64,000 nt of DNA, taken from the sequence record OM386662.1. One strand, given 5' to 3'. Positions within the stretch are counted from its first letter, which is position 1; each line of letters starts with the position of its first letter. Under the pieces are notes generated by a model that saw only the letters and a program-made list of their open reading frames with translations, was not told the origin of the DNA and searched no databases. Source of the stretch: Escherichia phage vB_EcoM_ESCO47. Shown here piece after piece: positions 363 through 47,583 of this stretch. The position numbers and the translations under genes are program-made.

Positions 363-914
363 TTATCTGAAGATATTTATCACTCTTTTAAAAAATGATT
401 TTCGTTCTTTTTCTGGCCATGCCGGGAATTCGCCACCTAAATGCTCATGCTTTTCATAAAGAGCAAAGAAACGTTTAAGATTCTGGTAATAGAATTTCTC
501 GTCTTTATTTGCAACAGAAGCTTCAACCAAATTAGACAAGACTTGGTACTCTTTAAAAAGTTGATCAAGTTTTCTATTTCTAAGAGTCAAACGTTTATAA
601 CACTCATCCTCTTTCCAGCCGCCATCTATCCAAAGATCAAACTCGCCAGGCTCATCAAATGTTGCACCCTGTAAGCTTCCTATACTATCAATTTTAACGG
701 GTTGTTTATCGAAGGTCCAAGCTAGTTTACCGCGATGATCTTCTTCGTAAATCCAATCTTGAATGCGTTCGTCAAAAACAATCGCATATCCTTCTTTATG
801 ATCAAGTGGTTTTTTAGTTGTAGAATGCGCCGGGAGCCCAATGCCTTTAACAGGTTTATATGTTTCTTCTTTATAAAATTCTTTAGTGTCAAAATAGTAG
901 TGGTAAATTTTCAT
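363..914 (-). CDS. 38: gp38 long tail fibre assembly protein (T4-type)
   Basis: 183-aa ORF MKIYHYYFDTKEFYKEE...; same length and N-terminus as T4 gp38; follows gene 37. Confidence 0.9.
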   Translation of the reverse strand: MKIYHYYFDTKEFYKEETYKPVKGIGLPAHSTTKKPLDHKEGYAIVFDERIQDWIYEEDHRGKLAWTFDKQPVKIDSIGSLQGATFDEPGEFDLWIDGGWKEDECYKRLTLRNRKLDQLFKEYQVLSNLVEASVANKDEKFYYQNLKRFFALYEKHEHLGGEFPAWPEKERKSFFKRVINIFR

Positions 915-944
915 TATTATAAAGGGCCCGAAGGCCCTCTCCTT
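915..944 (-). promoter_or_regulatory. 38: Gene 38 translation initiation region with hairpin between SD and AUG
   Basis: On the minus strand SD AAGGAG (939-944) is about 24 nt from the AUG, separated by GGGCC-UUCG-GGCCC hairpin (924-937). Confidence 0.5.
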
Positions 945-3900
945 AAGCTAAACGAACGATATAGTTAAACGCAACGTTTTTAACAGTGTTCTCTGTATTA
1001 CCTGTTGCGTTAACTGTTATTGTGTGACTATGTGAGCCTAATGCAACGGTGTGTGTATGAGCACCAATACCTACAGTATGCGTATGAGCACCAACGGCCA
1101 CGTTATGTGTATGTGCTCCAGCCGAAGCAGCAGTACCAGATAAAGAGTGACTGTGGTTGCCCTGACTGTCTGTTTTCGCACAATAACCAGCTCCCTGCTG
1201 GTTGGTTCCTTTAACCGTGGATACACTTGCCGGAATGGTTACTGTTCCGTATTGGCTCCAACCACTACTGCTCATCCTTAAACCATCTGTGTGAGCATGG
1301 GCGCCGGTTGAGTTTGTGGAACCGCTCAGACTATGTGTATGCGCACCAGCTGAAGCAGCAGATTTGGTACCGTAGTCAAAACTCGAACTTGTCTTAGTAC
1401 CGTAGTCAAAACTTGACGACGTTTTTGTACCTAGATCAACCGAGTTAGAAGAAGCACTATGGGTATGAGATTTAACACCATCTGCTTCTGTACTCAACAC
1501 TGCACGACCACTCGGTTTACCTTTAATAGTTTGTCCACGCATATCAGGAATAGTTCCTGAAGTATATACTGCACCTAATTTAGGATACGCCGCTTTGTCA
1601 AAAGTCTGGCCTTCCATAATAGCATAACCCACAGGAGGTGTATCAGTTGGCCATGGAATCGGAGCACCAATCGGATAACTAGAGATGATATCCGTCTTAA
1701 GACTATTTATCGTCGTATTTAGGTTAGCAAAGTTACCAGTACCACCTGTGATATTACCATCAGTACCAATTATAACGGTATTAATTTCAATTTTATTAGG
1801 TGAACGGAACGAGCCATCACGTCTAAATTGCCATGCTAAATCCGCCTTTTGTGGACCTGTTGAATCATTATCACCGCCTTCATGATAGTGAATTCTAAAA
1901 TCACCCGTACTAATTAATGTACCCAAAGAATAACAACTATCGCCCTGGACATATCGTTGTTTCAAAATAGGAACGTAAGTACTTGTATCTGTACGATTAA
2001 TATTCATGTAGAATGGGGCACGAACATTTTCATTATTTTGCGAGACAAATGAACCAGCCCCTGCTGGTTTAACAATATCAGTACATTCAGCATCAATATA
2101 TGTCGACTGCCCTAATTGCATACGGAAATTAGGACTTATACGCGAATTAGTGGTCAACACAACGAGTTTTGTATCATTGTCTACGGTGACCATATTACCG
2201 CCGGCACCATCATCACCTAATGTAACGGTATGACGCATTTGTACCATGCCATTATTAAGACTAATACTTAATGGGCGGAGATTACTTATTCCACCGCTTT
2301 CACCAGCATCTTTGGGAGTTGGAATAATATGCAATGCTGCTTCAGAGCGGCGGAAAATAGCACCGTATTCGGCATTCCAAATTCTTAATGCATCATTAGT
2401 TCCACCAATTTTAACTTGACCACTAATAGAAGAACCGCCTGTTAAACTAAGTCCATTGCTCATGGTAACTGCACCATTTAAAGTGCTCAAACCATCAACT
2501 TTAAGACTTCCTGCAGTGTTAATAGAGCCGTTAGCATTAACTTGTCCATTGAACTGGGATACAACAGGCCCAGTAGTTTCAGAGCCACTTGGAGCCATAC
2601 GCTGTGAATAAAAATAATATCCTTGTCCATCAGAAACTTCGAATACTGTTTCGCGCGCTTTGTCACCGGTAGCATTAAAACTATTACCCCAAGCTTTAAC
2701 AGTCACATAACTTTTATTCTGTCCTGCTCTAGAACCAGCTTCCCACAAGATTTGTTTTGTGCCGTCTACCCCTGTAGGAGCTTTAAATGTTAAAGCCGAC
2801 GTATTATCGTCACCTGCAAAATACATGCCGGATCGTATAGAAATACGTTGGGTTGAATAGATGGTACCATCAGCCCTAAGATTTAATTCATTATTACCGG
2901 TTTTGATGTTTAATATGCCAGGTTCAACAATAAGACCCTCGGACATAGATACTGCCATACGTCCTGTGCCACGGAAATAATGATAAAACTTACCATTACT
3001 ATTATACCCAAGATGAGTTTGTCCATCACCGTTAGCATTACCATCAGGAGTTGTTTGAATTGTTAAAACAGAAGCGTTATTTCCAGGCATTACCCAGGTG
3101 GCACCAGAGTCATCTGAGCGACCGACAGTCAAACGTTTCGTACTTAAAAATACCCCATTTGTTAAAGTCGCAGTAGAAGTACCTTGTGCAACAAAATCAA
3201 TTTTACCTGAAGCGATAGATTTGAATCCAGTAGATGGGTCCCCTAGAACTATATAACATTCGCCCATAGCGCCAGTTGAACCATAGTTATTAATGTTTTC
3301 ATCTGCGGTAATTGTGCCAATTGCGAGAGAACGACGTAATACTAAAGATCCATCATTACGAAGACCCATCCGTTTATTAATCGCGGTGTCACCTGTCCAC
3401 CAAGAAATCTCTTCGCTTTTACCAGTTTGTGAAGAAACTAATTCATGATAAATCGTGCCGCCGGATTTTGCGCGGAATTTACGAAGATAGTTAATACCGT
3501 TTTCTTCACCTGTGCCAGGATAAACATACTGAACTAATGATTGCGAATCGTATTGTCCAAATGCTTTTGTGTCTAAAACAATGGTTTTCGTATTAACTTG
3601 TGGAGCAGAAACTATACCAGTAGCGGAGTTAATATTGCCTGACGCAGAAATATTACCTGTTGCAACAACCAAGCTACCAGAATCAACCGTAAATCCACCA
3701 TCGCGTCGGAAAGTCCAATATTTCGAAGTGCCTGTTTCATCAATATAATGCATCTTCATTGAGCCTTCATTAACTAAGGTCCCTAATGAGAAAGTACCAT
3801 CTTTATAACGTTGCTTAATTAACGGGTTATATTCTGAAGTAGCGGTTGATGCGGAAATATCCATGAAAATAGGGGCTTTTGCCGTGTGTTGACCGGCCCA

Positions 3901-13207: not shown

Positions 13208-13229
13208 GGGAGACTTCGGTCTCCCTTTT
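13208..13229 (+). terminator. Rho-independent terminator after gene 32
   Basis: GGGAGAC-UUCG-GUCUCCC followed by UUUU. Confidence 0.7.
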
Positions 13230-15791: not shown

Positions 15792-18047
15792 ATGCAAGTA
15801 ACTAAGAGCAGTGGTGTATCCCAAAATTTTGATGCACAGAAAATTATTCAAGTCTTAACTTGGCAATGTGAAGGAACACAAATTGACCCATATGAATTGT
15901 ACGAAGAAATTAAGACCCATCTTGTCGACGGGATGAGCACCAAAGATATCCAGAAGATTTGTATTAAAGTTGCAGCTAACTCGATTTCTGTCGAAGAACC
16001 TGATTATCAGTATGTCGCTGCCAAAGGGCTAATGTTTGCACTTCGTAAAGATGTATATGGGCAGTTTGAACCGCCTGCTTTTATCGACCATATTTCTTAT
16101 TGTGTTAATGAAGGCAAATATGATCCTGAGTTGTTGTCTAGATATTCTGCAGAAGAAATCATTTATCTTGATTCTCGGATTAAACATGAGCGAGATTTTG
16201 ATCTGACTTATGCTGGTGCTATGCAGCTTAAAGAAAAATACCTGGTTAAAGATAAAACAACTGGTAAGATTTATGAAACTCCACAGTTTGCTATCATGGC
16301 TATCGGTATGGCCTTACATCAAGACGAAACTCATGACCGTTTGAAACATATTATTCGTTTTTATGATGCCGTTTCTACTCATCAAGTTTCATTGCCTACT
16401 CCAATTATGGCAGGTGCTCGTACTCCGACTAGACAGTTTTCCAGCTGTGTAGTTATTGAATCCGGTGATTCGTTGAAGTCTATTAACAAAACGTCAGCAT
16501 CAATTATCGAATATATTTCCAAACGAGCTGGTATTGGTATTAACGTTGGTATGCTTCGCGCTGAAGGTTCTAAAATTGGCATGGGTGAAGTGCGTCATAC
16601 AGGTGTTATTCCGTTCTGGAAACATTTCCAAACAGCAGTAAAATCTTGTTCTCAAGGTGGTATTCGTGGTGGTGCTGCAACCGCATATTATCCGATGTGG
16701 CATTTGGAAGTAGAGAACCTGTTAGTTCTTAAAAATAACAAAGGTGTTGACGAAAACCGTATCCGTCATATGGACTATGGAATTCAGATTAATGACCTTA
16801 TGATGGAACGCCTTGGTAAAAATGATTATATTACTTTATTTAGCCCTCACGAAATGTCCGGCGAATTGTATTACTCGTTCTTTGAAGACCAAGATAAGTT
16901 CCGTGAGCTTTATGAAAAAGCAGAAAAAGACCCGGCAATCAGAAAGAAACGAATCAAAGCATTAGAACTTTTTGAATTGTTTATGACTGAACGTTCAGGT
17001 ACTGCTCGAATTTATCCACAGTTTGTTGATAACACGAATAACTACACTCCGTTTATTCGTGAAAAAGCTCCAATTCGTCAGAGTAACTTATGTTGTGAAA
17101 TCGCTATTCCGACTAATGATGTTAACAGTCCTGACGCTGAAATTGGTTTATGCACGTTATCTGCTTTTGTATTAGATAAATTTGATTGGCAAGACCAAGA
17201 TAAAATTAATGAACTTGCTGAAGTACAAGTACGTGCACTTGATAACCTGTTAGACTATCAAGATTATCCGGTTCCAGAAGCTTTAAAAGCTAAAAAGCGT
17301 CGAAATCTCGGTGTCGGTGTTACTAACTATGCAGCTTGGTTAGCTTCTAACTTTGCCTCATATGAAGATGCTAACGATTTGACCCACGAATTATTTGAGA
17401 GATTACAGTATGGACTCATTAAAGCTTCAATCAAGTTGGCCAAAGAAAAAGGACCTTGCGAGTATTATTCAGACACTAAATGGTCTCGAGGCGAATTACC
17501 TATCGACTGGTACAATAAAAAGATTGACCAAATCGCAGCTCCAAAATACGTTTGTGACTGGTCGGGGCTACGTGAAGACCTTAAGCTCTTTGGCATTCGC
17601 AACAGCACATTATCAGCTCTTATGCCATGTGAATCAAGCAGCCAGGTTTCCAACTCTACAAACGGTATCGAGCCTCCACGTGGTCCGGTAAGTATTAAAG
17701 AATCTAAAGAAGGTAATTTCCGCCAGGTAGTTCCTAATATCGAACACAACATTGGTCTTTATGACTACGCCTGGAAACTTGCTAAGAAAGGTAATAAACC
17801 TTATTTGACTCAAGTTGCTATTATGTTGAAATGGGTATGTCAATCGGCTTCAGCCAATACGTACTACGACCCAGAGAATTACGAGAAAGGTAAAGTGCCA
17901 ATGTCTGTAATGCTTGACGATTTGCTTTACTTCTGGTACTTCGGCGGTAAAAACCTCTACTATCATAATACTCGCGATGGTTCTGGTACTGACGACTATG
18001 AACTAGAAACTCCAAAAGTTGATGATTGTTCAGCTTGTAAGCTTTAA
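15792..18047 (+). CDS. nrdA: Ribonucleotide reductase large subunit
   Basis: 751-aa ORF; class I RNR alpha-type sequence with C-terminal CSAC motif region (...DDCSACKL); size close to T4 NrdA. Confidence 0.95.
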   Translation: MQVTKSSGVSQNFDAQKIIQVLTWQCEGTQIDPYELYEEIKTHLVDGMSTKDIQKICIKVAANSISVEEPDYQYVAAKGLMFALRKDVYGQFEPPAFIDHISYCVNEGKYDPELLSRYSAEEIIYLDSRIKHERDFDLTYAGAMQLKEKYLVKDKTTGKIYETPQFAIMAIGMALHQDETHDRLKHIIRFYDAVSTHQVSLPTPIMAGARTPTRQFSSCVVIESGDSLKSINKTSASIIEYISKRAGIGINVGMLRAEGSKIGMGEVRHTGVIPFWKHFQTAVKSCSQGGIRGGAATAYYPMWHLEVENLLVLKNNKGVDENRIRHMDYGIQINDLMMERLGKNDYITLFSPHEMSGELYYSFFEDQDKFRELYEKAEKDPAIRKKRIKALELFELFMTERSGTARIYPQFVDNTNNYTPFIREKAPIRQSNLCCEIAIPTNDVNSPDAEIGLCTLSAFVLDKFDWQDQDKINELAEVQVRALDNLLDYQDYPVPEALKAKKRRNLGVGVTNYAAWLASNFASYEDANDLTHELFERLQYGLIKASIKLAKEKGPCEYYSDTKWSRGELPIDWYNKKIDQIAAPKYVCDWSGLREDLKLFGIRNSTLSALMPCESSSQVSNSTNGIEPPRGPVSIKESKEGNFRQVVPNIEHNIGLYDYAWKLAKKGNKPYLTQVAIMLKWVCQSASANTYYDPENYEKGKVPMSVMLDDLLYFWYFGGKNLYYHNTRDGSGTDDYELETPKVDDCSACKL

Positions 18048-18098
18048 GAATTTTAATTATAATTGACTCATGGATGAGTCACTATTGAGAGAATATAA

Positions 18099-19277
18099 AT
18101 GAGTACAGTTTTTAATACACAACAAGTTGATGTTTTGAACGAACCTATGTTCTTCGGTTCAGGTCTCGGTCTTGCACGTTACGATATTCAACGACATAAA
18201 GTTTTTGAAGAGCTTATCGAAAAGCAGCTCTCGTTCTTTTGGCGTCCCGAGGAAGTAAACTTGATGTTGGATTCAGCCCAGTTTAATAAGCTTCCACAGT
18301 TCCAACAGGACATCTTTACCAACAACCTTAAGTATCAATCATTATTAGATTCTATCCAAGGCAGAGCACCATCTGCGGTACTTATGTCATTGCTTTCAGA
18401 CCCTTCATTAGATACATGGGTCGCTACATGGACTTTCAGTGAAACTATTCACTCTCGTTCATATACTCATATTATGCGAAATCTTTATACAGATCCATCG
18501 AAAGTATTTGATGAGATTGTATTAGATGACGCAATTATGAAGCGTGCCGAATCTATCGGACGATATTATGATGATGTTCTGGTTAAAACTCGAGCTTGGG
18601 AAAATTCTAAAGAATTTGTAGAACAAGCTAAAGAATCTCCTGATGCCGACCTTCGTTTAAACCAAGCTATTAAACAAGAGTCTGAAGCTAAACGAGACCT
18701 AATGAAATCTCTTTATCTTTGTTTGCATGTCATCAATGCATTGGAAGCTATTCGTTTTTACGTGTCTTTTGCTTGTACTTTCAACTTCCATAAGAATATG
18801 GAAATTATGGAAGGCAATGCGAAGATTATGAAGTTCATTGCTCGTGATGAACAGCTCCACCTCAAGGGCACTCAATATATTATTCGTGCTTTACAAGACG
18901 GTGAAGACGGTGATGAATGGGTCAAAATTGCTCAAGAGTGTGAACAAGAAGCAGTTGATATTTTCATGGAAGTTAACGCTCAAGAAAAAGAATGGGCTGA
19001 ACACTTGTTTAAAGATGGTGCTCTTCCAGGCCTAAATGTTAAAATCCTAAGTGAATTTGTAGATTATCTAACCGTGTCTCGTATGCGTAGTTGCGGTCTA
19101 CCATGTCCTCTTAAAGACATATCAACTCGTCATCCTATTCCATGGATTCGTGAGTATTTGAACTCTGATTTGGTTCAAGCTGCACCACAAGAAGTTGAGA
19201 TCAGTTCTTATCTTGTCGCTCAAATTGATAATGACGTCAACCAAGATGTAATAAATTCATACAAAAAATATTTCTAA
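18099..19277 (+). CDS. nrdB: Ribonucleotide reductase small subunit (uninterrupted, no intron)
   Basis: 392-aa continuous ORF; R2-type sequence (radical-site region ...VSFACTFNFHKNMEIMEGNAKIMKFIARDEQLHL...). Confidence 0.95.
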   Translation: MSTVFNTQQVDVLNEPMFFGSGLGLARYDIQRHKVFEELIEKQLSFFWRPEEVNLMLDSAQFNKLPQFQQDIFTNNLKYQSLLDSIQGRAPSAVLMSLLSDPSLDTWVATWTFSETIHSRSYTHIMRNLYTDPSKVFDEIVLDDAIMKRAESIGRYYDDVLVKTRAWENSKEFVEQAKESPDADLRLNQAIKQESEAKRDLMKSLYLCLHVINALEAIRFYVSFACTFNFHKNMEIMEGNAKIMKFIARDEQLHLKGTQYIIRALQDGEDGDEWVKIAQECEQEAVDIFMEVNAQEKEWAEHLFKDGALPGLNVKILSEFVDYLTVSRMRSCGLPCPLKDISTRHPIPWIREYLNSDLVQAAPQEVEISSYLVAQIDNDVNQDVINSYKKYF

Positions 19278-19304
19278 GGAAGGGACTTAGGTCCCTCTTA
19301 TATT

Positions 19305-19715
19305 ATGAAAGATATCGCCGCAGAATATTCTTTTATTAAATATACAGAGTTAGAATTATTGGAAGACGCGACAATTAAAACGGTTGAAGTCCCTAATAAG
19401 AAAAACGTTATCTATGCGATTGTAATAGATGATGAACTCATGTATATTGGTAAAACTAAGAATCTAAAGAAACGCATTAACTATTATCGAACTGCTATAA
19501 ATCGAAAAGACCAGACTTCAGACTCTAGAAAATCTTTAATGATTTTAGACGCGTTAATGCAAGGTCTAAAGGTCGAATTCTGGGCCCGCCAATGTTTCGA
19601 CCTATCGGTCACCAACGAACTCGGTTCTATGACCATCGCAACGATGGACCTTGAAGAGCCACTGTTTATTAAGAAGTTCAACCCGCCTTGGAATATCCAA
19701 TACAAGAAAAAGTAG
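19305..19715 (+). CDS. denA: Endonuclease II
   Basis: 136-aa ORF MKDIAAEYSFIKYTELEL...YAIVIDDELMYIGKTKNLKKRINYYRTAINRKD...; same length as T4 endo II with GIY-YIG-like motif. Confidence 0.85.
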   Translation: MKDIAAEYSFIKYTELELLEDATIKTVEVPNKKNVIYAIVIDDELMYIGKTKNLKKRINYYRTAINRKDQTSDSRKSLMILDALMQGLKVEFWARQCFDLSVTNELGSMTIATMDLEEPLFIKKFNPPWNIQYKKK

Positions 19716-19744
19716 TTTACATACCACATGGACTGTGGTATAAT
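19715..19744 (+). promoter_or_regulatory. Early promoter (GTTTAC-N18-TATAAT) upstream of rnlA
   Basis: gtttacataccacatggactgtggtataat. Confidence 0.6.
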
Positions 19745-19761: not shown

Positions 19762-20895
<1,134 letters not shown>

Positions 20896-27331: not shown

Positions 27332-27336
27332 TTTTA

Positions 27337-27358
27337 GGGAGACTTCGGTCTCCCTTTT
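27337..27358 (+). terminator. Rho-independent terminator after the small basic ORF
   Basis: Same GGGAGAC-UUCG-GUCUCCC hairpin followed by UUUU. Confidence 0.65.
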
Positions 27359-45885: not shown

Positions 45886-45890
45886 TCGAA

Positions 45891-45920
45891 AGGGGCTTCG
45901 GCCCCTTTCTTCGTTTTTAA
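45891..45920 (+). terminator. Rho-independent terminator after hoc
   Basis: AGGGGC-UUCG-GCCCCU followed by U-rich tract. Confidence 0.6.
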
Positions 45921-47547: not shown

Positions 47548-47583
47548 CAAAAAAAAAAGGGACCGTAAGGTCCCTTTTTTTTT
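47548..47583. terminator. Bidirectional terminator between rnlB (plus) and gene 24 (minus)
   Basis: A11 - GGGACC-GUAA-GGUCCC - T9; U-run on both strands. Confidence 0.7.

Follow-up and report, generated by a model that had tools for sequence, protein, structure and literature searches.

At the locus studied here, nrdB and denA, the gene for endonuclease II (EndoII), follow each other on the plus strand of a 64,000-nt stretch of DNA from Escherichia phage vB_EcoM_ESCO47 (record OM386662.1), hereafter called the window (Table 1). The best DNA matches of the window are Mosigvirus genomes with ~91% identity, and its phage is T4-like. The exact nrdB-denA junction of the window was present in none of the records (0) of the phage collection searched. 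The gap between nrdA and nrdB is only 51 nt (window 15792-19277), and nrdB is a continuous ORF of 392 codons; the nrdB region differs from that of T4 in having no group I intron, no mobE and no nrdB.1.

Read along the mRNA, the junction consists of UAA GGA, the hairpin AGGGAC UUAG GUCCCU, the spacer CUUAUAUU and the AUG, and the gap between the nrdB stop and the denA start measures 27 nt. From the end of AAGGA (19280) to the AUG (19305) there are 24 nt, and the aligned linear spacing of the Shine-Dalgarno (SD) sequence is 22 nt. The original prediction had placed an SD, AAGGAAG, at 19276-19282, with 22 nt between 19282 and the AUG at 19305, and a 6-bp stem, AGGGAC-UUAG-GUCCCU, at 19281-19296; the coordinates of both are exact. 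The SD keeps its position but not its extent, as the stem begins with its last two bases, which leaves UAAGGA as the usable core. That denA has no other good SD is borne out by the anti-SD duplex energies in the window, which are -5.1 to -6.0 kcal/mol for UAAGGA and +1.5 kcal/mol for CUUAUAUU, a spacer without anti-SD complementarity. A promoter scan found no promoter for denA in the 27-nt gap or nearby within nrdB.

Table 1. Features of the nrdB-denA junction and of the gene 38 comparator region in the window
Feature	Position	Strand	Remarks
nrdB CDS	18099-19277	+	392 aa, no intron; ORF list; Pfam Ribonuc_red_sm, E=7.8e-36
nrdB stop UAA	19275-19277	+	first three bases of the denA SD
SD core UAAGGA	19275-19280	+	6-nt match to the 16S 3' end
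Hairpin 5' arm AGGGAC	19281-19286	+	folding and covariation
Tetraloop UUAG	19287-19290	+	loop comparison across relatives
Hairpin 3' arm GUCCCU	19291-19296	+	folding and covariation
Spacer CUUAUAUU	19297-19304	+	8 nt, U-rich, without SD; weak terminator-like tail, T score 2.85
denA, endonuclease II (EndoII), GIY-YIG	19305-19715	+	136 aa; start AUG 19305-19307
rnlA	19771-20895		after denA; ORF list
Gene 38 comparator region	912-945	-	gene 37 stop/SD UAAGGAG at 945-939
Gene 38 hairpin AGGGCC-UUCG-GGCCCU	938-923	-	stem 938-933 with 928-923
Gene 38 spacer UUAUAAUA	922-915	-	followed by AUG 914-912

A strong, near-consensus early-type promoter lies between denA and rnlA (19716-19744, plus strand). 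It is composed of TTTACA, 17 nt and TG-TATAAT (11/12 matches), and an 8-bp inverted repeat, ATACCACA...TGTGGTAT (19721-19741), covers its spacer and its -10 hexamer.

The start of denA is annotated inconsistently. The T4 record AF158101.6 (137517-137951, corresponding to L002:673-1107) gives denA 144 codons from a GTG within the hairpin, the CJ20 record uses a TTG that precedes the AUG by 6 nt, and the Merlin record assigns RBSs to the neighbouring genes and none to denA (loci L002:673-1107 and L028:395). We rejected the T4 GTG as a start, since it is not conserved in the window and abuts the SD, whereas MK(D/E)IA is conserved from the AUG. Counted from this codon, the N-terminus MKDIA or MKEIA is kept among the relatives. 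Such disagreements would be expected from a missing proximal SD.

Folding and conservation of the hairpin

The 16-nt hairpin alone has a predicted energy of -9.3 kcal/mol with a z of about -2.5, while z is -0.93 for a 56-nt piece. Folding of the RNA, which had been suggested as a check, gives the hairpin with a formation probability of 1.00 in the context from -60 to +30. Since such single-sequence statistics are weak to moderate, and weak evidence if taken alone, we rely on the comparative evidence. The minimum-energy structure lengthens the helix into the SD by the pairs A19277-U19299, G19278-U19298 and G19279-C19297. By this prediction the SD is not free but in weak pairing with the U-rich tail; to open it takes about 2.5 kcal/mol in the window, with a median of 2.4 among the related junctions. 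As a conserved structure this SD-sequestering extension (alignment columns 13-16 with 34-37) is not supported: it consists of A-U and G-U pairs with one double change in four pairs.

denA loci gathered from IMG/VR, metagenomes and GenBank yielded 28 distinct nrdB-denA junctions of the same plan. They come from at least seven confirmed genera (Tequatrovirus, Mosigvirus, Gaprivervirus, Moonvirus, Winklervirus, Gelderlandvirus and Bragavirus) and from unclassified contigs. All 28 show [UAA]GGA(G), a stem of 5-7 bp, a tetraloop and then a short spacer before the AUG. In the MAFFT alignment of these junctions, 95.8% of cells in the 6-bp helix pair, and compensatory double changes occur in four of the six pairs (29 cells). 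The second pair from the loop, for example, is G-C in 18 junctions, C-G in 6 and A-U in 3. None of 500 shuffles matched the observed values of pairing and covariation, and shifting the 3' partner by 1 to 3 columns lowers pairing to 20-69% of cells. RNAalifold returns the same hairpin and no other structure, while a search of Rfam gave sub-threshold chance matches only.

The loop is UUCG in 22 of the 28 junctions; the T4 group has GCAA or GUAA, and the window shares UUAG with one other junction. As UUCG and GNRA loops are extra-stable in the sense strand only, the selected object is the mRNA. Judged from the alignment, the hairpin is under selection. The closest relatives of the window (L001:679-694) carry CGGGAC-UUCG-GUCCCA, with 5 bp and a C/A mismatch. 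In the window both flanking bases are changed, C to A and A to U, which creates the sixth pair, and the loop UUAG is less stable than the UUCG of these relatives.

The window holds 48 hairpins of comparable quality, compared with 10.3 +/- 3.1 after dinucleotide shuffling (128 kb, both strands). Set against these roughly 10 chance hairpins per 128 kb, the covariation in 28 distinct junctions places the predicted denA hairpin beyond chance. G+C-rich tetraloop hairpins are, as a class, about 4.6-fold more frequent in the window than in shuffles and stand mostly at gene ends, on both strands (e.g., 13208-13225, 27336-27355, 45888-45909, 49265-49246 and 4933-4916). In the transcribed sense, the G-rich arm precedes the C-rich arm in nearly all of them, and a frequent form is GGGAGAC-UUCG-GUCUCCC with U runs behind it. 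A perfect 15-bp palindromic hairpin, A9-GGGACC-GUAA-GGUCCC-U9 (47550-47583), lies between convergent genes and, from its sequence, looks like a bidirectional terminator.

Spacing, initiation and natural variants

The arrangement around the hairpin is as constant as the hairpin itself. An SD motif lies 0-3 nt 5' of the stem in every one of the 28 junctions, and the nrdB stop is a UAA inside this SD in 28/28. The anti-SD duplex averages -6.5 kcal/mol for this motif and +0.7 for the spacer, and by this measure none of the 28 spacers contains an SD. The stem ends 7 nt before the AUG in 20 junctions, 8 nt in seven and 10 nt in one. Aligned SD spacing amounts to 20-26 nt in linear sequence and, with the hairpin folded out, to 5-7 nt in 22/28 (6 nt in the window). 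A spacing of 5-7 nt is near the optimum of E. coli. The denA SD lies farther than about 15 nt from its start in linear sequence (22 nt aligned), the hairpin is situated wholly between the two and cuts the spacing into the range of 5-11 nt, an SD at normal distance is lacking, and the hairpin shows compensatory conservation among related phages. Conservation of the frame of denA relative to nrdB was considered and rejected, the stop-to-start distance being 30 nt in T4 as in the window and 29 nt in NBG1.

From these sequence comparisons we regard it as rather probable that translation of denA starts from a split initiation region of the gene 38 type at the nrdB-denA junction. denA, without a promoter of its own, would be read from the nrdB transcript, on which its sole SD, UAAGGA, overlaps the nrdB stop and is separated from the AUG by 24 nt. 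Of these, 16 would be absorbed by a fast-folding tetraloop hairpin rich in G+C, and a 30S subunit paired to the SD would keep about 8 single-stranded nt (aligned spacing ~6) to an AUG in the P site. We infer that the ribosome uses the denA SD across the hairpin and that disruption of the stem would lower EndoII synthesis. The initiating subunit could either arrive from solution (de novo) or have just terminated on the UAA within the SD. This reading takes up what was observed: the anatomy of the junction, which is conserved, covaries and has a fixed geometry, the lack of another SD and the likeness to gene 38. It would also account for the disagreements over the denA start and for the repeated "terminator" labels discussed below.

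A lead comes from phage defence. According to a bioRxiv preprint of 2026 (10.64898/2026.04.06.716658), T4 evades the PANGU defence by mutation of denA, including a change in a "ribosome-binding sequence". The only SD-like element in the T4 nrdB-denA gap is AAGGAG, 5' of the hairpin, and we take the escape mutation as a lead to, not a proof of, the T4 denA SD. As EndoII now triggers a bacterial anti-phage defence, the control of its expression is of practical interest.

Related phages express denA in other ways. In loci L066 and L109 the 27-nt junction is lost and nrdB and denA overlap by 4 nt as ATGA, with the C-terminus of NrdB (...KKYL*) and the N-terminus of DenA both intact (L066:560-604, L109:545-589). 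The upstream stop thus overlaps the denA start in these two, in contrast to the same junction of the window with its 27-nt gap and hairpin. In Aeromonas and Stenotrophomonas phages denA overlaps nrdA.1. In Krischvirus the hairpin follows a different upstream gene, and denA has a proximal SD of its own, GAGGAAAGGAUA, with 25 nt between hairpin and AUG. Krischvirus W115 (L024:330-400) and L075 show the order UAAUAAGGUG, hairpin GGCGGGA-GAAA-UCCCGCC, UUUGUUGUG, the strong SD GAGGAAAGGAUA and AUG, a layout that may represent the ancestral form of the junction, a terminator followed by an SD. The fixed distance of 7-8 nt between stem and AUG is seen only where the proximal SD is absent. Given the variety of these layouts, the hairpin with its distal SD is one of several interchangeable ways to express denA from an upstream message.

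The overlaps bear on an alternative that we consider unlikely, in which denA would be translated by termination and re-initiation only. Ribosomes finishing nrdB would open the hairpin and move along to the AUG, which lies 27 nt downstream, and the hairpin would be no spacer; it would instead block independent entry of 30S subunits or hold the post-termination subunit. The UAA within the SD of 28/28 variants, the ATGA of two lineages, which is classical coupling, the overlap of denA with the upstream gene in distant phages and the weak sequestration of the SD would all agree with this. On the other side, the extension of the helix into the SD does not covary (one double change in four pairs), masking of the SD by ~2.5 kcal/mol is too weak to keep out free 30S subunits, and the tight effective spacing of 5-7 nt fits placement directed by the SD. 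In part this alternative coincides with the favoured reading, and it is compatible with initiation at a split SD.

Termination and message stability

The hairpin also resembles a terminator, and a simple scan marks 19281-19296 as terminator-like. GenBank records of NBG1, Merlin and many other phages annotate a "terminator" at the site. The element could primarily be a leaky intrinsic terminator (attenuator) that ends nrdB, with denA translated from read-through transcripts; transcription into the nuclease gene would be reduced, and the 3' end of nrdB may be protected as well. By the d'Aubenton-Carafa rule, which takes d >0 as an intrinsic terminator, 20 of the 28 variants qualify (d = +39 in T4), and the spacer has 65% U against 31% genome-wide. 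Stem and loop are like those of clear terminator hairpins elsewhere in the window, the distance of 7-8 nt from stem to AUG would also be expected from a minimal tail with an immediate start codon, and the initiation region may simply have been fitted around a termination hairpin.

Several observations nevertheless make termination as the primary role improbable in our judgement. In the window d is -9 and T is 2.85, the tail CUUAUAUU falls below the threshold, and 8/28 variants fail the rule. The NBG1 record also labels the gene 38 hairpin a "terminator", a type that by experiment is an initiation enhancer; such annotations therefore do not discriminate between the readings. Efficient termination would silence a promoterless denA. 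The universal SD 5' of the stem, the absence of an SD 3' of it and the fixed geometry between stem and AUG are left unexplained, and two lineages do without the hairpin. The UUCG intrinsic terminators of T4-type phages share with the denA hairpin a G+C-rich stem, a stable tetraloop and a U-rich tail, and the site in the window differs from them in its weak tail, in the conserved SD abutting 5', in the AUG at a fixed 7-8 nt and in a downstream gene that lacks its own promoter. No maps of transcript 3' ends in T4-type phages were found in the literature searched.

The hairpin may in addition work as a leaky terminator or 3' stabiliser, with greater likelihood in T4 than in the window. Tentatively, and with considerable doubt, we consider that UAAGGA(G)-tetraloop hairpin-7 nt-AUGAAA may be a bifunctional module, at once a leaky terminator or 3' stabiliser of the upstream message and a spacing adaptor for a split SD that includes the upstream stop. 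If so, it would hold a potentially toxic nuclease at a fixed, low proportion relative to ribonucleotide reductase, at the levels of RNA and protein, and the module and a plain ATGA overlap would be evolutionarily interchangeable.

A role in RNA stability or processing appears very unlikely as the sole function. The hairpin would then obstruct 3' exonucleases after cleavage, or stabilise a processed denA message at its 5' end, and would have no part in the geometry of initiation. The ~4.6-fold enrichment of G+C-rich UUCG hairpins in the window, mostly at gene ends, would suit such a role, as would the T4 SD, AAGGAG, which includes GGAG, the RegB cleavage motif according to PMC1702504. GGAG is, however, missing from the window (AAGGAAG) and from most variants, so that any RegB control of denA would be lineage-specific, and both the fixed 7-8 nt to the AUG and the missing proximal SD would be left unexplained. 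The T4 SD with GGAG is at L002:667-676, and its counterpart without GGAG at 19275-19282 of the window.

Comparison with T4 genes 38 and 25

Initiation at an SD bridged by a hairpin is known from T4. At gene 38, a structure in the RNA between SD and AUG shortens the spacing from 22 to 5 nt, at gene 25 from 27 to 11 nt, and destabilising mutations decrease initiation (PMC3014915). The same review confirms that the gene 38 mechanism is documented in T4, as the original prediction had maintained, and it names genes 38 and 25, and no further gene, as natural split-SD regions. The split RBS of gene 25, at the gene 26-25 junction, was described by Nivinskas 1999 and by Malys and Nivinskas 2009, as cited in PMC3014915. 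denA is probably a third example of this known device and no new mechanism; the literature searched contained no description of the denA initiation region, an older mention being possible. As a third case after T4 genes 38 and 25, it would be one that covaries across at least seven genera. Its natural "knock-out" variants, with an ATGA overlap or a proximal SD, would form a comparative series for studying the way in which a 30S subunit copes with a hairpin that separates SD and P site.

Within the window, the arrangement of SD, hairpin, spacer and AUG recurs as predicted at gene 38, on the minus strand at 945-912. A hairpin scan of the window found an SD 5' of the hairpin and none 3' only at denA and gene 38; at four other genes preceded by a hairpin (62200-, 60461-, 42514- and 28288+) the SD is 3' of it. 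We trained a covariance model, R1, on the 28 denA junctions alone. Its sole other full-length match in the window is the gene 38 region (39.9 bits, E=4e-5), the remaining UUCG hairpins giving local matches of at most 21 bits. Against the complete T4 genome, R1 returns denA, a training member, followed by the region of gene 38 with 28.3 bits (E=0.006). No further full-length match with SD and AUG in register was obtained over the T4 genome and the window. A search of IMG/VR for relatives of gp38 led to one locus, and the gene 38 comparators were therefore taken from GenBank records. Opening the SD of gene 38 initiation regions costs 1.8-3.5 kcal/mol, a range from which denA is indistinguishable. 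The likeness of denA to gene 38 is supported by every computational test run, and its function is as yet a prediction.

The resemblance to gene 25 is one of architecture. There, too, the SD is distant (27 nt) and a hairpin in between brings it to 11 nt, and the element is conserved in close T-even phages and absent from distant ones, a distribution that the denA element shares. In contrast to gene 38, the gene 25 hairpin and its SD (GAGG) have no sequence relation to those of denA, and R1 misses gene 25 in T4.

Gene 38 and denA differ in several respects. Gene 38 belongs to the late genes and is read from late transcripts, whereas denA, an early or middle gene, closes the nrd unit. The gene 38 hairpin is of the C(UUCG)G type, while the denA loop in the window is UUAG, and the denA spacer is richer in U and hence more terminator-like. 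The function of the gene 38 element has been demonstrated by experiment, that of denA is predicted from sequence. In their plan the two agree closely: the upstream UAA is embedded in the SD (UAAGGAG in gene 38), a G-rich 5' arm and its hairpin follow directly, the spacer of 5-9 nt is A/U-rich, the gene begins with AUGAAA, and a linear spacing of 22 nt shrinks to about 5-6.
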